Positions 47,155 to 54,461 of a DNA stretch of 64,000 bases are shown piece by piece (position 1 is the stretch's first letter; each line of letters opens with the position of its first letter). The notes beneath the pieces are model-generated. The model searched no databases. It had not been told where the DNA came from and was given only the letters and a program-made list of their open reading frames with translations. The translations under genes and the position numbers were made by a program. The stretch is from Candidatus Marinacidobacterium sp. GTDB taxonomy: Bacteria; Acidobacteriota; Vicinamibacteria; Marinacidobacterales; Marinacidobacteraceae. The stretch spans positions 3,008,001 through 3,072,000 of the forward strand of contig OZ242011.1 in NCBI GenBank assembly GCA_965204755.1, read 5' to 3'.

Positions 47155-49344
47155 ATGCCGGAACTCGGCCCGGACACCGAAGTCCGCTTCGTCAAGGGCG
47201 TCGGCGAACGCCGCGCGAAGGCGCTGGCCGAAGCCGGCATCCGCCGGGTCTCCGACCTCCTGCTGCGGCTGCCGTACCGCTACGAGGACCGCAGCGCCGG
47301 CCGCCCGGCGTGCGAGGTCCGGGACGGGGAGTCGGCGTCGGTCGAAGTGGTCGTCGAGTCGCTGCGCGTCCGCCCCACCCGCCGGCGCAACCTGAAGATC
47401 GTCGAACTCCGCGCCCGGGACGACACCGGCCCGGTGCGCGCCACCTGGTTCAACCGGCAGCACCTGAAGCAGGTCCTCCGGCCGGGCCGCCGCCTCGTCC
47501 TCTTCGGCGCCGCCAAGGTCGCCTATCCCGGTGCGCCCCCCGAGTTCCAAAACCCGAAGTACGAACTCATCACCGGTCCCCCGCCGCCCCGGTTCGAATC
47601 CTCGAGCGGGGACGAGCCGCCCGGTCCCGACGCCACCGACTCCGGCCCCACCGACGCCGGCCCCGATCCCCTGCATGTCGGGCGCATCGTCCCCGTCTAT
47701 GAACGCCTCGGCGAGATCCACCCCCGCCAGTTCCGCCGGATCCTCCACGACCTGGTGGAGTCCGGCGCCGGCGCCGAAACGGGCTGCCTCCCGGAGGAAC
47801 TCATCACCCGACTCGCCCTCCCCACGCGAGAAGAAGCCCTCCGGGAAGTCCACTTCCCCGAACCGGACGCGGAACTCGAAGCCCTCGCCGGGCGCCGGTC
47901 ACCGGGACACCGCCGGCTCATCCTCGAGGAGTTCTTCTCCTTCGCCCTCGGCCTCCTGCTGCGCCGCCGGGAAGACCGCACCGGGCGCGCCGGCGGCGGC
48001 GTCTTCCCGGTCAGCGACGCCGTCCGCGGCCTGTTCCGCCGGGTCGTCCCCTTCCGGCTCACCGGCTCGCAGCGGGACACGCTCCGGACGATCGCCCGCG
48101 AGTTCGCCGGCCCGCTCCCCATGCGCCGGCTGCTCCAGGGCGATGTGGGGTCGGGGAAGACCATCGTCGCGGTCGTCGCCGCGCTCATCGTCATCGACAA
48201 CGGGGCGCAGGCGGCGCTCATGGCGCCGACGGAGGTGCTCGCCGAGCAGCACTACGCCACGATCCGGCGCCTGCTGGAGCCCCACCGCATCCGGGTGGCG
48301 CTGCTCACTTCCGGCCTCTCCGCCGCCGACCGCCGGGCCACCCTGACCGCGGTGGCCAGCGGCTGGGCGCAGTTCGTCATCGGCACCCACTCGCTGATCC
48401 AGGAGGGGGCGCAGTTCCGCAACCTGGGTTTCGCGGTCGTGGACGAGCAGCACCGGTTCGGCGTGGAGCAGCGCCAACTGCTGGTCGAACGGGGCGCCGG
48501 CTGCGACCTGCTGGTCATGACCGCGACGCCGATCCCCCGGACGCTGACCATGGCCCTCCACGGCGACCTCGACCTCTCCGAACTCACCGAACTCCCGCCC
48601 GGCCGCCAGCCGATCGAGACGATCGTCCGCAGTTTCGCCGAGTTGGACGGCGTACACGACGCCGTGCGCGAGGAAGTCCGGCGAGGCCGACAGGCGTTCT
48701 ATGTCTGCCCGTTCATCGAGGACTCCGAAGCGGTGGACGGCAGCGGCGTCGAGCGCCGCTTCGCCGAACTCGCCGAAGGGCCGTTCCGCGGCCTGCGGCT
48801 CGACCTGGTCCACGGCCGGGTCCCGGCCGCGCAGCGCGACCGGGTCATGACCGCCTTCGCCACCGGCGAGGTGGATGTGCTGGTCGCGACCACGGTGATC
48901 GAAGTCGGCGTGGACATCCCGAACGCGACGGTCATGGTGGTGGAGAACGCCGAGCGGTTCGGCCTCGCCCAACTCCACCAGTTGCGCGGCCGGGTGGGGC
49001 GCGGGCGGTTCCCGTCCACCGCGGCGCTGGTGCACGGCGACGAACTCACCGAGTCCGCGAAGCGGCGGCTGGAAGTCCTGAAAGAGACCGCCGACGGCTT
49101 CCGCATCGCCGAGGAGGACCTGGCGATCCGCGGGCCGGGCGAGTTCTTCGGCGCCCGCCAGCACGGAGTCCCCCCGTTCCGCGTCGCCGACCTGGAGCGC
49201 GACGCCGAGTTCCTGCGGCAGGCGCGCCGGGAGGCGCAGCGTTTCCTCGACTCCGGCGCCGAGGAGCGGGAGGAGGGGCGGCGCATCCTCGGGGAAGTTC
49301 GCGCCGCCTGGGGCGACCGCTTCGGGTTGACCAAGGGCGGCTGA
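47155..49344 (+). CDS. recG: ATP-dependent DNA helicase RecG
   Basis: QGDVGSGKT, APTEVLAEQH, DEQHRFG, MTATPIPR, QLRGRVGR, DGF.IAEEDL..RGPGE. Confidence 0.97.
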   Translation: MPELGPDTEVRFVKGVGERRAKALAEAGIRRVSDLLLRLPYRYEDRSAGRPACEVRDGESASVEVVVESLRVRPTRRRNLKIVELRARDDTGPVRATWFNRQHLKQVLRPGRRLVLFGAAKVAYPGAPPEFQNPKYELITGPPPPRFESSSGDEPPGPDATDSGPTDAGPDPLHVGRIVPVYERLGEIHPRQFRRILHDLVESGAGAETGCLPEELITRLALPTREEALREVHFPEPDAELEALAGRRSPGHRRLILEEFFSFALGLLLRRREDRTGRAGGGVFPVSDAVRGLFRRVVPFRLTGSQRDTLRTIAREFAGPLPMRRLLQGDVGSGKTIVAVVAALIVIDNGAQAALMAPTEVLAEQHYATIRRLLEPHRIRVALLTSGLSAADRRATLTAVASGWAQFVIGTHSLIQEGAQFRNLGFAVVDEQHRFGVEQRQLLVERGAGCDLLVMTATPIPRTLTMALHGDLDLSELTELPPGRQPIETIVRSFAELDGVHDAVREEVRRGRQAFYVCPFIEDSEAVDGSGVERRFAELAEGPFRGLRLDLVHGRVPAAQRDRVMTAFATGEVDVLVATTVIEVGVDIPNATVMVVENAERFGLAQLHQLRGRVGRGRFPSTAALVHGDELTESAKRRLEVLKETADGFRIAEEDLAIRGPGEFFGARQHGVPPFRVADLERDAEFLRQARREAQRFLDSGAEEREEGRRILGEVRAAWGDRFGLTKGG

Positions 49345-49670
49345 CCCCGGGCATGTGTCTTCGACCCGTGTCTTTCGCGGGAGCGACGCTTCGGACGAGT
49401 CGCCCGCGGGTTCGCGCGGCTCTGCCCATGCGGCTGCTGCCGGGCGATGCCGGGTCGGGGAGGACCGTCTTTACGAAGGACCTCTCGCGTTTGGCTGGGG
49501 CAGGTCCGCGATCCGCTGTCCGGTCATCGCTCGCCGGAAGAAACCGACCGGTTCGGTCTTGCCGGTCACCGGGTCGCGCTCCCCTACCGCTCCGCGGAAT
49601 CGGGCCGCGCCTGCACACCTGAACCGAGGAAGCCGGCGCCGATGTTGATCGTGCGCTATCCTCTGTTTCC

Positions 49671-49804
49671 AAGGGCCGCATCCTACTAGCTTTCCTATAA
49701 AAGGAGTGCCTGGCAACTCCCAGAACAGGGACTCGGCTTGCCGAGCGGCGGACAGTGCGCGGCGTCCGTCGGGCGGCCCCACGGGGACTACCAGGCGCAG
49801 TCCC
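49671..49804. ncRNA. Putative structured RNA, array copy 1
   Basis: GGGCCGC/GCGGCCC long-range helix; hairpins GGAGT-GCCTGGCA-ACTCC, CTCGG-CTTG-CCGAG and GGGACT-ACCAGGCGC-AGTCCC; the two loops are complementary. Confidence 0.55.
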
Positions 49805-50021
49805 TACCCCCGCTTCGGGGTTTGCGAAGGACCTCTCGCGTTTGGCTGAGGCAGGTCCGCGATCCGCTGTCCGGTCATCTCTCGCCGGGAGGAAGCGACC
49901 GGTTCGGCCTTGTCGGTCACCGGGTCGCGTTCCACCACCGCTCCGCGGAATCGAGCCGCGCCTGCACGCCCGAAACGAGGAAGCCGGCGCCGAGGTTGTT
50001 CGTGCGCTATCCTTGGCATCC

Positions 50022-50159
50022 AAGGGCCGCATCCTACTAGCCCTACCGAACGGTTGAGGAGTGCCTGGCAACTCCAAAACAAGGGACTCGGCTTGCCGAG
50101 CGGCGGACAGTGCGCGGCGTCCGTCGGGCGGCCCCACGGGGACTACCAAGCGCAGTCCC
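50022..50159. ncRNA. Putative structured RNA, array copy 2
   Basis: Same stems; loop variant CCAAGC (G>A at 50149). Confidence 0.55.
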
Positions 50160-50375
50160 TACCCCCGCTTCGGGGTTTGCGAAGGACCTCTCGCGTTTGG
50201 CCGAGGCAGGTCCGCGATCCGCTGTCGGGTCATCGCTCGCCGGAACGAACCGATTGGTTCGACCCTGCCGGTCACCGGGTCGCGCTCCGCCACCGACCCG
50301 CGGTATCGAGCCGCGCACGCCCACCCGAACCGAGGAAGATCGCACCGATGTCGATCGTGCGCTACCCTCACGCGC

Positions 50376-50511
50376 AAAGGCCGCATCCTACTAGCTGACC
50401 CAAAAGGTGAGGAGTGCCTGGCTACTCCAAGATCAGGGACTCGGCTTGCCGAGCGGCGGGCAGTCGCGGCGCCCCCGGGCGGCCCCACGGGGACTACCAG
50501 GCGCAGTCCCC
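50376..50511. ncRNA. Putative structured RNA, array copy 3
   Basis: Same stems; compensatory GGGC/GCCC in place of GGAC/GTCC. Confidence 0.55.
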
Positions 50512-50724
50512 ACCCCCGCTTCAGGGTTTGCGAAGGACCTCTCGCGCTTGGCCGAGCAGGTTCGCCAGTTGCTTCTCGGTCATCTCTCGCCGGAAGAAAC
50601 TGATCAGATCGACCTCGTCGGTCGCCGGGTCGCGCTCCACCACCGCTCCGCGGTATCGAGGCCGCCCGCACACCCGAACTGAGGAAGCCGGCGCCGATGT
50701 TGATCGTGCGCTATCCTCACTCGT

Positions 50725-50861
50725 AAGGGCCGCATCCTACTAGCTAACCGAACGGTTGAGGAGTGCCTGGCAACTCCAAGAAAGGGGCTCGGCTTGCCGA
50801 GCGGCGGGCAGTGCGCGGCGTCCGTCGGGCGGCCCCACGGGGACTACCAGGCGCAGTCCCC
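50725..50861. ncRNA. Putative structured RNA, array copy 4 (adjacent to the nuclease stop codon)
   Basis: Same stems; hairpins at 50760-50777 and 50839-50861; ends 9 nt from the gene's TGA. Confidence 0.6.
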
Positions 50862-50870
50862 ACCCCCGCT

Positions 50871-51368
50871 TCAGGGTTTGCGAAGGACCTCTCGCGCTCG
50901 GTCAAGCAGGTTCGCGAGTTGCTGCTCGGTCATCTCTCGCCGGAAGAAACTGATCAGATCGACCTTGTCGGTCACCGGGTCGCGCTCCACCACCGCGAAG
51001 TAGAAAATCCCGTCGACTTCGCCCCACAGGCACAGGCGGTTGTCGAAGGCCTCCGGCGGCCGGTTCGCCGGCGGGCTGGGTCGGAATACGACCCTCGGCG
51101 CTTCCAACAGCGCCGGCAGCCGCCGGTAATCCTCGGTCCCAAGTTCGGGATGGCCCCTCTTCTTCCTCCTGGGTTGTGCGAGCCGTCCATCCTGTTTCTT
51201 CATGATGCGGTCGGGGAGTCGCACCACGGCGGTCCGGGCCCCGATCCAGTCGCGGACTTCGGGGTCCAGCGCGCCGGCGCGCAGGGCGCCCCGGGGTTCG
51301 GCTCGGAACCGGGCGAAGATCGGGCTCTCGAAGACGGAGCGGGCGAGTGTCCCGTTCAGGTCATCCAT
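50871..51368 (-). CDS. Stand-alone PBECR2-like (BECR-fold) putative ribonuclease, 165 aa
   Basis: VVRL...IMKKQ...HPELGTEDYRRLPALLEAP...Y.AVV.......DLISFFR resembles the PBECR2 pattern (recalled, not searched). Confidence 0.65.
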   Translation of the reverse strand: MDDLNGTLARSVFESPIFARFRAEPRGALRAGALDPEVRDWIGARTAVVRLPDRIMKKQDGRLAQPRRKKRGHPELGTEDYRRLPALLEAPRVVFRPSPPANRPPEAFDNRLCLWGEVDGIFYFAVVERDPVTDKVDLISFFRREMTEQQLANLLDRAREVLRKP

Positions 51369-51577
51369 CGGGCCCCGGCCCCGGCCTCTTTCCGGGAAGG
51401 GCGTTCGCCGGCGGGGATGGCCCGCCCGGGTCGGCGCGCGGGGCTCGTTCCGTCCGGCGGTCCGGAGGTTCGATCCGCCGATTACCGCGGCCCCGGCCTC
51501 CGGCGGCGCGAGCGTTCGCGCCTCCCGACGGTGCGGGAGTTCGCGCCTCCGGACATCCGCGTCGTTTGGTTATGGTT

Positions 51578-51698
51578 CCGGGTGGCGCATGTGACACGGT
51601 GAAATTCTCCCGGCCGTAACCGATCCCTTTCGGGATGAGAGTGCTATGTGGGGTTCCCGGCTCCGGCCGGATGGGAGGCCCCACCATGCGCCGCCCGG
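51578..51698. ncRNA. Putative 121-nt multibranched structured RNA next to the 3' end of the second PBECR2-like gene
   Basis: 14-bp closing stem CCGGGTGGCGCATG/CATGCGCCGCCCGG; internal ACGGT/GCCGT, ATCCC-TTTC-GGGAT and GTGGGG/CCCCAC; CTCCC/GGGAG possible pseudoknot. Confidence 0.6.
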
Positions 51699-51710
51699 GT
51701 GGGCAGCGAG

Positions 51711-52361
51711 TCACCACCGGGGGGGAGGTCGCGTCGCCCGTCGCTTGGCGCGTCCGACATCCTTCTCGTGGATCCTCTGGAAGTTCGTGAGGAAGATTTC
51801 GTTGTTCACGGTCTGCTTTATGGCGGCCTTGTAGTGATGGCCTTCGCGCTCTCCGAGGAAGAGAGTGAGATGGCGTCCGCTCGGTTCGGTGATCACCGCT
51901 CCCCCTTCGATGACATCCGGAAGCCGGCGATAGTCGTCGAGCGTGAGGTCCGGGTGGCGAACCACCTGCTTCACTGCGCTTTCCGCTGACAGTCGCACGA
52001 CCCGCGCGGGAGGGAACCCCCCTTCCGGCAGGGGCTCCAAGCCGGCTCGCGCCTCGTCGGTCAGGACCGCAACCGGCAATTCGCCGATTCGCGCCTTGAT
52101 GGCGGCGTCCTCGATCTTTATGAACAGCGCCTTTCCGGCATCCGGCAGGACTTCCCGGTAGGCCTCCACTCGCTCGAAGAACCCGGGGAGGACGGGACTC
52201 CCTTCGCCGAGGAGCCGTCGCACCGTCGCGCGGGCGGTCTCCGGGTCGGTGTTCTCGACCCATTCGAGGAGGGCGAGCAGGGCCGCCGGGCCCCGACCCG
52301 TCCGCGGAGGTGAGGCCGCGGGCGGGGGTCGGCTCCTTCGGCGGGGCGGCGCCGGAGGCAT
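51711..52361 (-). CDS. Second PBECR2-like putative ribonuclease (start uncertain; ATG 52361 chosen)
   Basis: VVRLSAESAVKQ..RHPDLTLDDYRRLPDVIE.G...YKAAIK.T..NEIFLTNFQR; paralogous to 50871-51368 (shared HP.L..(E/D)DYRRLP). Confidence 0.7.
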   Translation of the reverse strand: MPPAPPRRRSRPPPAASPPRTGRGPAALLALLEWVENTDPETARATVRRLLGEGSPVLPGFFERVEAYREVLPDAGKALFIKIEDAAIKARIGELPVAVLTDEARAGLEPLPEGGFPPARVVRLSAESAVKQVVRHPDLTLDDYRRLPDVIEGGAVITEPSGRHLTLFLGEREGHHYKAAIKQTVNNEIFLTNFQRIHEKDVGRAKRRATRPPPRW

Positions 52362-52368
52362 CCGGATG

Positions 52369-53583
52369 TCAGCCGGCGCGGGCGGCCGCGGCGGGCGACT
52401 CCGACTCCGCCGACTCCTCCGCCGGAGGCAGGTCCACGCCGACCCCCAGCGGATGGAGGGCGTCGCCGTCCGCCGTCGGTTCCCGGAGGGCGCGAGCCAC
52501 GACATCGTCCGGGGCGCCGTCCGGGGCATCGTCCGGGGCGCGTTCCCGCGCCGAGTCGGCGGCGAGCAGGACCGGGCGGAGCGGCTCCGACAGCCGGCCC
52601 GCCTCCGGGGCCTGGCGGGAGATGCTGGCGTCGGCGGCCTCCCTGGTCAGGAAGTTCACGAACTCCCGCGAGCCGCCCTTCCAGCCGCTCAGGGTCTCGG
52701 CGAGCGCCATCGGGTGCCGCTCTTCGCGCTCGCCGAAGACGCAGCCGGGGTGGTAGGTCCGCACCGCGTTCCCGAAGACGCTGAACCGCCGTCCCACGCG
52801 GTCGCTCAGGACGAAGGTCATCGGCCCGGTGAGGACCGCGACATGGGCCAGCCCGACGGTCCGCCAGGCCAGGTCGGCGACATCGATGGCCGCGGTCTCC
52901 GGGTCGGTCTCGCCGATCTCCAGGCCGGTGAGGAACACCGGGCGCGTCCGCTCCGGGTCGGAGATCAGGTCGATGAGGCCGGCCACGCTCTCGGCGTCCT
53001 GCACCACCCAGGGCGTCGCGCGGAGCCGCCAGCCGTAGTCGGTCAGCCCCGGGGAGTCGGCCAGCCGGCGGACGATCTCCGGCGCGGCGGCCGTGTGCGC
53101 CGCCCTGCCGGTCAGCAGCGTGGCGGAGAGGCGGGTGCAGTCGGTGGTCTCCACCAGGAAGACCTCGACCCGCCAGGCGGCCCGCGGCCGCCGGCGGCGC
53201 TCCACCGCGGCGCCGAAGCACCGGCCGTCCGGGAACTCCCGCTCCTCGGTGACGACGGCGGGGCGCGCGTTCGGGCGGCGGGGCGGGCCGGCCGCCGTCG
53301 GCGTTTCGGGCCGCGCCGGCGGTTCGACGCGCTGCCCGCGGCCCCGGCGGGGGCCCTCCAGGAAGCGGAGGATGCGGTCCCGCGACGCGGCGAACTCGCC
53401 GCCGCGCCCGTCGCGCGCCACATCGGCGCAGACCGCGGCCGCCGGGGCGAGCGCCGCCCGCCCGGACCGGACGCGGCGCGCCGGGCGGCGGTCAGCCGCG
53501 GGAAGGGGATGCGGCGCCGGCTGGCGGGCCGGGAGGGGCAGGGGATTCGGTCGGGGTTGGGGTAGGGTCGGCGGATGGGGCAT
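52369..53583 (-). CDS. Hypothetical protein with a globular alpha/beta core and low-complexity ends
   Basis: Core LI.DPER.RPV...DLA....GLAHVAVL...VG..FSVF..AVRTY.PG; stop lies 7 nt before the next gene. Confidence 0.6.
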   Translation of the reverse strand: MPHPPTLPQPRPNPLPLPARQPAPHPLPAADRRPARRVRSGRAALAPAAAVCADVARDGRGGEFAASRDRILRFLEGPRRGRGQRVEPPARPETPTAAGPPRRPNARPAVVTEEREFPDGRCFGAAVERRRRPRAAWRVEVFLVETTDCTRLSATLLTGRAAHTAAAPEIVRRLADSPGLTDYGWRLRATPWVVQDAESVAGLIDLISDPERTRPVFLTGLEIGETDPETAAIDVADLAWRTVGLAHVAVLTGPMTFVLSDRVGRRFSVFGNAVRTYHPGCVFGEREERHPMALAETLSGWKGGSREFVNFLTREAADASISRQAPEAGRLSEPLRPVLLAADSARERAPDDAPDGAPDDVVARALREPTADGDALHPLGVGVDLPPAEESAESESPAAAARAG

Positions 53584-53801: not shown

Positions 53802-54461
53802 GTGAGCGTCCGGGTCGGGAGCGGGCGGTTCGCGGGTCGGGAACTCCTCGGCCCGCCCCCGGAGCGGCGGCGGCGAGGGACCGCGGCTCCCGGCGGCGGG
53901 ACGCGGCCGACGGCGGCCCGCCTGAAGAAGAGCCTCTTCGCGGTCATCGGCGACGAACTCCCCGGCGCGCGGGTGCTCGATGTCTGCGCCGGGACCGGGG
54001 CGCTGGGCTTCGAGGCCATCTCCCGGGGCGCCGCCGGGTGCGTCTTCCTCGAACGGTCGCGGCCGATGGGGGAGCGGATCGGGAAGAACGCGGAGCGCCT
54101 GGGTCTCGACGGCGCCCGCCTCCTCGCCGGGGACGCCGCCCGCTCGCTCCGCGTCCTCGCCCGCCGCGGCGAGCGGTTCGACGCGGCCTTCTTCGATCCG
54201 CCCTGGAGCGAATGGGAAGAAGGCGGCGCGGCGGCCGCGCTGGCCGCGATCGCGCCTCTCGTTTCGCGCTTCGTCGCCGCCGTCCACCCGGCCGCCCGGA
54301 GCGCTCCGCCGGAAATCCTCACCCCGGAGTCCGCATCGTCCCCCGAAGTCCGCTTCCGGCGCGTCCGGGAGGTCGCGGCGGGGGACGGGGCCTTCTCGCT
54401 CTTCCGGCCCGCCGAGCCGCCGCCCACCGGGCAGGAACCGCCACTCACGCCGATTCCTTAA
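53802..54461 (+). CDS. rsmD: 16S rRNA m2G966 methyltransferase RsmD
   Basis: TRPT..RLK.SLF, VLD.CAGTGALG.EA.SRGA, FFDPPW; upstream of coaD. Confidence 0.88.
   Translation: MSVRVGSGRFAGRELLGPPPERRRRGTAAPGGGTRPTAARLKKSLFAVIGDELPGARVLDVCAGTGALGFEAISRGAAGCVFLERSRPMGERIGKNAERLGLDGARLLAGDAARSLRVLARRGERFDAAFFDPPWSEWEEGGAAAALAAIAPLVSRFVAAVHPAARSAPPEILTPESASSPEVRFRRVREVAAGDGAFSLFRPAEPPPTGQEPPLTPIP

Follow-up and report, generated by a model that had tools for sequence, protein, structure and literature searches.

Type III toxin-antitoxin systems such as ToxIN, CptIN and TenpIN pair a toxin of the ToxN/AbiQ-type endoribonuclease (endoRNase) family with an antitoxin RNA, whose repeats of roughly 34-40 nucleotides (nt) lie upstream of the toxin gene and behind a terminator. 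The repeat RNA is cut into units by the toxin, which a bound unit then inhibits. In the accessible part of the published description, multiple RNA repeats assemble with the toxin into a cyclic complex. A different arrangement is found in contact-dependent inhibition (CDI) and Rhs loci, in which orphan toxin-tip/immunity cassettes are arrayed downstream of toxin genes. In MuF polymorphic toxins, a small putative immunity open reading frame (ORF) follows 89.4% of 191 toxin genes, according to the available text of the survey (Jamet 2017, PMC5576092). PBECR domains, as set out in the available sections of a second study, are fused to MuF, portal and polyvalent proteins and have an active site composed of a histidine located within the N-terminal helix together with a C-terminal serine or threonine (Iyer 2017, PMC5512222). 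No RNA partner is mentioned in those portions of either paper (Jamet 2017, PMC5576092; Iyer 2017, PMC5512222). Here we describe a locus of Candidatus Marinacidobacterium sp. (Acidobacteriota; GenBank assembly GCA_965204755.1, contig OZ242011.1, positions 3,008,001 to 3,072,000; this stretch of 64,000 nt is called the window) in which the gene of a small protein of the MuF-C/PBECR type, a predicted RNase, is followed by a tandem array of long structured RNAs. A paralogous gene beside it is followed by a second class of structured RNA. The best reading of the locus is that it holds two cognate protein-RNA modules.

The gene of the 165-amino-acid (aa) protein, which we call family A, lies on the minus strand at 50871-51368 of the window, and one tandem array occupies 49470-50996 (Tandem Repeats Finder: period 351-355 bp, 4.3 copies, 87% matches, score 2144). 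A separate repeat search of the window returned an identical register for the 351-bp array. An earlier note on this DNA, made from the sequence alone, had described a 165-aa minus-strand ORF whose C-terminus and adjoining non-coding sequence recur at about 350 bp, giving four non-coding elements and four extra C-terminal remnants; the repeat search agrees with this period, and covariance-model matches together with a codon alignment return the same counts. Situated 3' of the gene, the array consists of four structured-RNA units, here named RNA-A, and four remnants of the C-terminal end of the ORF, all on the minus strand. Covariance model R1 places the RNA-A units at 50696-50864 (161.8 bits; helices P1-P5), 50347-50514 (156.5 bits), 49992-50163 (164.8 bits) and 49641-49808 (154.7 bits), which gives a range of 155-165 bits, and the four are 83-90% identical in pairwise comparison. 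The first unit starts 7 nt past the stop codon of the 165-aa ORF. The conserved element is about 170-185 nt long, shorter than the 225 nt that had been proposed for it, and the remainder of each repeat is spacer and ORF remnant.

The remnants were located by aligning the last 42 codons of the 165-aa ORF to the array. Remnant 2 (50521-50646) has an intact frame and stop codon and 94.4% nt identity with no gap; remnant 3 (50170-50295; 81.7% identity, 1 gap) is frameshifted by a 1-nt indel, which is shared by remnant 4 (49815-49941; 83.5% identity, 1 gap) and by remnant 5 (49470-49590; 81.0% identity, 1 gap), so that one common indel marks the three copies of 81-83% identity. Remnant 5 is the end of the array as delimited by Tandem Repeats Finder, and no RNA unit comes after it. 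The last ~25 nt of the ORF (50871-50910) are near-identical in nt in remnants 3-5 despite the frame-changing indel, and since these nt could form a small hairpin, the RNA may begin within the coding sequence. On neither strand of 49345-50870 is there an ORF of coding type by a GC3 test (G+C at third codon positions), so no immunity ORF follows the 165-aa gene, as the earlier note had stated. Tandem, diverged units that join the 3' end of a toxin gene to a protective factor, with a break at a conserved ..VVERDP.. block, are reminiscent of CDI and Rhs cassettes. The putative protective factor in this array, in contrast, is an RNA, and the remnants comprise only 41 codons, three of the four being frameshifted.

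A single contig of 3.98 Mb with 71.7% G+C makes up the genome. Among contigs from four public DNA runs of two studies, one run possibly being the source sample, pieces specific to individual units were found with 0-4 differences, although no short-read contig bridges the whole array. That the array was created by misassembly, which had been judged unlikely beforehand, can be regarded as having a negligible probability: the missing bridge is set against units that differ from one another by 10-17%, against these unit-specific contigs, and against a second single-contig genome, assembled independently, in which many loci have such arrays. Contigs from two runs of one study connect position 50995 back to 49592. 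The step back is 1404 nt, or four periods, and the joint has one additional base; related strains could carry a variant of the array that differs in copy number or is recombinant.

The 165-aa protein itself has no match in Pfam (E<=1), NCBIfam, PADLOC or PHROGs, and its family is small, with 23 clusters at E<=1e-3 among 5.8 billion proteins and 27 representatives in a second set of 1.84 billion. When Pfam was applied to 29 family members, PBECR3 was found in three and PBECR2, Phage_Mu_F and MuF_C in two each; a profile of these 29 members gave nothing at E<=1 against PDB sequences. In an AlphaFold2 model of the protein (pLDDT, the predicted local distance difference test score, 89.9; pTM, the predicted template-modelling score, 0.85), a helix at residues 78-89 is followed by strands at 93-96, 111-118, 121-129 and 136-143, and the BECR core fold, in which an N-terminal helix precedes a four- to five-stranded sheet, is thus present as modelled. 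Structure alignment against 48,161 solved chains ranks RNase toxins of the BECR fold at the top, with BrnT (Z 5.5, root-mean-square deviation 2.8, 75 aligned), a CdiA-CT tRNase (Z 5.5) and colicin D (Z 4.7) ahead of RelE, YoeB and ParE, the best matches having Z of 4-5.5. Predicted viral structures in BFVD yielded 14 matches at E<=1e-3 over ~160 columns (template-modelling score ~0.55-0.61, best E 1.2e-6), and these are "Phage MuF C-terminal domain-containing" proteins, a minor capsid protein and polyvalent proteins. Membership in the PBECR/MuF-C group of BECR-fold domains is therefore given by the homologues and by the predicted fold. The earlier label of PBECR2-like nuclease stands for this wider group and falls for PBECR2 specifically, since the window protein has no Pfam match and PBECR3 and PBECR2 each occur in few members (3/29 and 2/29).

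The residues expected of an active enzyme are present in the family. His73 is invariant in 29/29 members, and Ser140 and Arg143 are invariant in a 12-sequence alignment of closer relatives; the latter two are not on the list of positions conserved at >=90% in the 29-sequence alignment, which includes fragments. Phage proteins that are linked to the RNA keep S-x-[RH] by our reading of the motif. Judged from these alignments, family A has both the histidine in or before the N-terminal helix and the C-terminal serine or threonine of a PBECR active site. The 165-aa protein, as a solo domain of the MuF-C/PBECR type, looks catalytically competent, and RNase activity is predicted for it.

About 104 nt following the stop codon of the 165-aa gene recur elsewhere in the genome, and the exact motif of the 5' hairpin occurs at 14 genome sites. 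A MAFFT alignment of 13 copies supports five helices: P1, the 5' hairpin; P2, a long-range closing stem; and P3, P4 and P5, which are enclosed by P2. A sixth, variable hairpin is visible by eye. In this alignment 93.2% of cells pair, compared with 46-53% when the partners are slid, and changes on both sides are seen in 8 pairs versus 0-2 with slid partners. When 66 copies from several phyla are aligned, two-sided changes are seen in 26 of the 31 pairs, in 223 cells altogether, and the fraction of cells that pair is 91.9% versus 46-55% slid, in an alignment that was fitted to R1 and hence leans towards the model. Between the four units of the window, variation affects 38 of 115 unpaired columns versus 5 of 31 pairs, in the latter mostly by exchange of G-C and G-U, and the stems are preserved in every array unit. 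P2 is closed by an invariant G-U, and G-U pairs are strand-specific. RNA-A is thus, on the evidence of covariation in both alignments, a structured RNA, as the earlier note had supposed for the repeats of the window. Translations across the element in diverse loci have no common frame beyond the invariant hairpin.

In all 66 copies there is almost no variation in the P1 loop (UGCGCCUGGUA) or in the P5 loop (CCAGGC). The two loops are able to form six Watson-Crick pairs, GCCUGG with CCAGGC, and a 6-bp loop-loop pairing within RNA-A is probable. That a 12-nt loop is almost invariant over phages and bacterial phyla is an unusual constraint in need of explanation. Mimicry of the ends of 5S rRNA by the invariant loops, suggested by a resemblance to the E. 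coli 5S, was rejected because local alignment to the 5S of the same genome scored 15, against 17.5 +/- 2.6 for shuffled sequences. Rfam 15 gave 0 matches at E<=1 in 48500-53000 of the window, and in nine diverse RNA-A loci it found only CRISPR repeats, which lie beside one copy. No tRNA or tmRNA was found in the window by ARAGORN.

The RNA-A element is not peculiar to this locus. In a survey of 41 related genomes, in which G000 is the genome of the window and G001 a sister genome of the same genus, family-A proteins and RNA-A are confined to the identical 5 of 41 genomes, with R1 counting 15 RNA-A copies in G000, 32 in G001, 4 in G008 and 1 each in G014 and G021. RNA-A lies directly downstream of 18/18 intact family-A genes in these five genomes, and the other copies are members of arrays or orphans. 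RNA-A copies thus often occur without the gene and the gene always with RNA-A, an asymmetry that a toxin and its antidote would be expected to show. In G001, five loci have the gene followed by 3-7 RNA-A units at periods of ~180 to 440 nt; some of its arrays are purely head-to-tail, as in one with seven matches at periods of 182-189 nt over part of its length, and others have a C-terminal remnant ahead of each unit, as in the window. Amplification into arrays has happened repeatedly and independently.

Such copy numbers could also be produced by selfish or neutral repeats, that is, by mobile or recombination-prone DNA that spreads through slippage or unequal crossing-over, keeps its hairpins at the DNA level and brings the cell no benefit. 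This explanation would accommodate the 15 RNA-A and 13 RNA-B copies (RNA-B being the second RNA class, below) of the own genome and the 32 and 34 of its sister, the differing periods within arrays, the scattering of copies beside unrelated housekeeping genes (solo modules of the genome adjoin recG, a GAPDH gene and coaE), and an orphan RNA-A copy that is 89% identical to the array units at a distance of 1 Mb. We nevertheless hold it to be quite improbable, given that in phages and across phyla the element keeps to a single protein domain and to the position of its stop codon; that its pairs include strand-specific G-U pairs such as the one closing P2; that its multi-helix fold is complex and covaries in 26/31 pairs; and that no transposase, integrase or reverse transcriptase is present among the neighbouring ORFs scanned for protein families.

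The second pair of the window supports the pairing of one protein with one RNA. A family-B PBECR-like gene at 51711-52361 on the minus strand encodes 216 aa from Met57 of a 272-aa ORF (51711-52529), the start being placed at 52361 since family-B homologues are 194-218 aa long. Its product is a paralogue of the 165-aa protein (BLASTP E 2e-7), with similarity around an H-P-[ED]-L..DYRRLP motif. RNA-B, at 51536-51700 on the minus strand (148.3 bits with covariance model R2; no Rfam match), starts ~10-15 nt after the family-B stop codon. RNA-B is ~120-165 nt long and has a structure distinct from that of RNA-A; from 13 copies of the own genome, RNAalifold predicts 28 pairs, of which 9 have changes on both sides. 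R2 finds 13 copies in G000 and 34 in G001, as well as one or two in each of four other genomes, and RNA-B arrays of 5 (contig C1, 2824373-2825532) and 4 (3087855-3088778) units in G000 each come directly after another family-B gene. All nine family-B genes detected at E<=1e-20 have RNA-B within 40 nt; three weaker family-B matches are without it. The two classes are also found together, in mixed RNA-A/RNA-B stretches of G001, in mixed orphan arrays and at the orthologous locus of G014 and G021, where a 404-aa gene, PBECR-A, RNA-A and RNA-B follow in this order. A specific protein-RNA partnership is very likely, and a neutralising role of the RNA plausible, on comparative evidence: the gene is always with its RNA, the RNA is sometimes alone, a second cognate pair exists, and orphan arrays can be mixed.

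A wider scan with a strict P1 motif turned up 60 stretches of genomes, 83 of metagenomes and 9 viral contigs. About 17 matches to this 19-mer are estimated to arise by chance in the genome collection, many single matches in genomes are the hairpin alone, and hairpin-only matches (17-18 bits) were not counted as RNA-A. Full-length R1 matches of 25-60 bits occur in metagenome-assembled genomes (MAGs) labelled Calditrichia, Halothiobacillus, Gammaproteobacteria, Thermodesulfovibrionales, Saprospiraceae, Flavobacteriaceae, Zhongshania and Porticoccaceae, and R1 also matches 8/9 of the viral contigs and about 20 metagenome contigs. The 34 matches outside the related genomes represent 27 distinct RNAs, 25 of which can be assessed, two having too little upstream sequence. 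Nineteen of the 25 lie -64 to +6 nt from the stop codon of an ORF of MuF-PBECR type (14 ORFs called by the family hidden Markov model at E<=0.01, five by motif reading), and the other six are orphans. In most loci the RNA starts 0-11 nt from the stop codon. Gene calls of many homologues extend 60-90 nt into RNA-A, and two of them end at a UAG in the P1 loop.

Six of the viral contigs carry, as the linked ORF, a 395-433-aa Phage_Mu_F protein that adjoins Portal_Mu or lies slightly downstream of it. In three of the six, RNA-A is followed by Phage_tail_S, the homologue of Mu G, and two of those three also have a Mu-like protease, giving the gene order Portal_Mu, Phage_Mu_F, RNA-A, Phage_tail_S. 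A Mu-like prophage of the own genome has Portal_Mu (contig C1, 3970682-3971704), a 437-aa MuF-PBECR gene and RNA-A (3967294-3967466). Fusion to MuF beside a portal gene is accordingly a property of relatives of the window protein, in these six contigs and this prophage, and the window copy is a solo domain. The RNA-A element comes from the MuF genes of Mu-like phages. In the MuF toxins and PBECR polyvalent proteins, then, the same domain family is found, at the C-terminus of Phage_Mu_F beside the portal gene in phage and prophage copies, with a predicted RNase and a downstream slot where an immunity factor is expected. The present system differs in that the slot holds a structured RNA, not a small immunity ORF, and in that the window copies are solo domains outside any prophage. 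That RNA-A, with no ORF, occupies the position of the immunity ORF of MuF toxins supports its reading as a neutralising partner.

Some further observations concern these phage loci. A second Phage_Mu_F match in the own genome lies at 573651-574046. In a Halothiobacillus MAG contig (L147:4069-4726), a frameshifted MuF-PBECR gene precedes an RNA-A copy, whose end is 3 nt away from an opposite-strand CRISPR array with six CRISPR-DR16-like repeats. Two phage copies of RNA-A had no blastn match among 50,697 phage records, and a loose two-motif scan of viral contigs was dropped after its 67 new loci proved to be coding sequence without the hairpin, with 0 matches to R1. In Pseudomonas phage DMS3 (NC_008717.1, 15046-19224), F and G overlap by one base, which leaves no room for an RNA, and an annotated anti-CRISPR gene comes directly after G. 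It may be that Mu-like phages generally accommodate accessory conflict elements in their F-G-protease stretch, as this arrangement suggests.

The phage gene order also lends itself to another explanation, in which the RNA is a structural or cargo partner of MuF-C, forming a ribonucleoprotein for head assembly or for delivery with the DNA by the virion, its loops linking RNAs as in the phi29 packaging RNA, and the solo chromosomal copies being decayed or co-opted pieces of prophages. RNA-A does lie between the head genes F and G and near the portal gene in Mu-like phage contigs, it follows a MuF-PBECR gene in the prophage of the own genome, and it shares with the phi29 RNA a length of ~170 nt, a link to genes of head morphogenesis and two complementary loops, which in RNA-A are 6 nt long and near-invariant. 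An RNA-binding role has moreover been predicted for the inactive MuF-C of phage Mu, according to the available part of that study (Iyer 2017, PMC5512222). We regard this explanation as rather unlikely. The catalytic histidine is conserved, solo modules adjoin housekeeping genes far from head genes, and assembly has no evident need of arrays, orphans or mixed RNA-A/RNA-B arrays. Four cultured Mu-like phages manage without RNA-A. Unlike the loops of the phi29 RNA, those of RNA-A are invariant and not covarying; there is no known link to a packaging motor, chromosomal arrays stand away from phage genes, and the Rfam scans assigned no copy to a family and hence to no packaging RNA.

The closeness of the RNA to its gene raises the question of whether it is merely part of the message. 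As a cis-acting element of the mRNA, it would be a 3'-untranslated or intergenic structure for stability, termination, recoding of the stop codon or translation of the next gene, possibly serving as an autoregulatory site for the RNase. Such a role would agree with the distance of 0-11 nt between stop codon and RNA-A start that most loci show, with the gene calls that enter RNA-A by 60-90 nt, and with the phage loci, where the RNA-A 3' end covers part of the region that holds the ribosome-binding site and the start of gene G. P4 and a U-rich tract resemble a terminator in two of the four window units; the locus has four terminator-like sites versus 2.3 expected, two of them being P4 of RNA-A, and a promoter scan of the locus found no sigma-70-like promoter. 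Head-to-tail units with no gene between or after them, orphans and mixed arrays cannot, however, act in cis, the stems are preserved in each unit of the array, and the window array runs into the convergent recG and so has no downstream gene. A cis-acting function is for us an unlikely account of the element.

We return to the reading of the locus as two cognate protein-RNA modules, in which each protein is a stand-alone C-terminal MuF-C/PBECR domain of the Mu-like phage head protein F. This domain is a predicted metal-independent RNase of the BECR fold, with its active-site histidine kept and with Ser-x-Arg in closer relatives. Each gene would be co-transcribed with a structured RNA that starts at the stop codon; RNA-A presents a 5' hairpin with an invariant loop, followed by a multi-stem domain closed by a long-range helix. 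The RNase would bind, and perhaps excise, its own RNA, and the bound RNA would then keep the RNase inactive, as in a type III toxin-antitoxin system, making the RNA the counterpart of the small immunity protein usually encoded 3' of MuF toxin genes. That the near-invariant loops dock into the conserved active site is speculation. Tandem amplification would raise the dose of RNA, and the diverged units with the last 41 codons of the gene would resemble orphan toxin-tip/immunity cassettes. Any benefit to the cell might then lie in a protection that extends to related RNases, those brought in by phage particles among them, or in the swapping of toxin tips. From the comparative evidence, we put the chances that the RNAs are cognate partners that bind and neutralise their own RNase at about even. 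Of the earlier note's proposal, an RNA-antitoxin or ribonucleoprotein module of defence or addiction, the wider protein group, the structured RNA and the lack of an immunity ORF are supported, and the antitoxin, defence or addiction role is a hypothesis. A broader form of this proposal, which we offer tentatively and with a good measure of doubt, is an RNA-based immunity to phage RNase effectors in which each MuF-C/PBECR subtype would be silenced by its own RNA of 120-185 nt, bacteria and prophages stockpiling diverged and mixed arrays, some of them with toxin-tip remnants.

Several observations weigh against this mechanism. With regard to the protein, Foldseek of the AlphaFold2 model against PDB found nothing at E<=1e-3, the matches to solved structures (Z<=5.5) are weak and below the level that would convince alone, and one subgroup of RNA-linked proteins has, by motif reading, an arginine in place of the catalytic histidine. 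With regard to dosage, the RNA lies 3' of the gene, so that a single copy can be at most 1:1 with the mRNA, and most phage loci have a single copy; in type III systems, the repeats are upstream, and only the tandem arrangement is shared. The loop-loop pairing is without compensatory change in the alignment, and three variant copies weaken it. Both loops are almost invariant from Acidobacteria to Gammaproteobacteria in company with proteins only 30-40% identical, which may mean a universal partner other than the protein. The overlap of the RNA-A 3' end with the ribosome-binding site and start of gene G in phage contigs fits cis-regulation. Finally, not every relative has the RNA: R1 gave nothing above 10 bits in the cultured phages DMS3, BcepMu, SuMu and Kp4852-3, and RNA-A is absent from a Sphingobium MuF-PBECR prophage and from alphaproteobacterial MuF-PBECR homologues.

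Compared with ToxIN, CptIN and TenpIN, the locus likewise has the gene of an endoribonuclease, here a predicted one, beside tandem, same-orientation, structured and probably pseudoknotted RNA; the RNA would be expected to bind and silence the enzyme, and both occur in phages and bacteria. The toxin fold here is, by contrast, BECR/PBECR and not ToxN/AbiQ-like, the RNA units are 120-185 nt long with five or more helices instead of short repeats, they are diverged by 10-17%, and single copies are common. The pairing of a MuF-C/PBECR-type gene with such RNAs, together with two RNA classes that have no Rfam entry, appears to be new, in agreement with the earlier note, which had recognised no described architecture. 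Our literature search found no RNA linked to MuF or PBECR genes, within a partial coverage that excluded supplements and so could miss an annotation there; the accessible text of a 2026 BECR preprint does not mention an RNA partner.

If the RNAs neutralise the RNases, the locus would stand for an RNA-antitoxin system whose toxin has an unrelated fold and whose RNAs exceed the ToxI-type repeats four- to fivefold in length. It would place an RNA where polymorphic toxins usually have a protein immunity gene, a case of which we found no example in print, and it would provide a concrete function for the MuF-C/PBECR domain of phage head proteins, whose role is only predicted in the accessible sections of the earlier study (Iyer 2017, PMC5512222). 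Should the broader idea of RNA immunity be true, the arrays would correspond, at the RNA level, to the orphan toxin/immunity cassettes known from CDI loci, and the whole a polymorphic toxin system with an RNA immunity factor. Whatever their function, the locus adds two strongly covarying RNA classes without an Rfam entry, one of which is common to Mu-like phages and at least five bacterial phyla, and the cognate pairs A and B offer a ready test of specificity.

The two protein-RNA modules and the array share a 4.4-kb minus-strand stretch with the 404-aa gene mentioned above (52369-53583, minus strand), which has a HEC-07-like domain (PADLOC HEC-07, E 2.5e-43, residues 133-325) and no Pfam match. 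This gene directly precedes a PBECR-like gene in four of five genomes examined and was considered as a third component. The candidate was rejected because the gene is single-copy in 27/28 genomes of the family, most of which are without the module, and it is given here as context only. The stretch is flanked by recG (47155-49344, plus strand) and by an rsmD-like methyltransferase gene (53802-54461, plus strand), both named from sequence.

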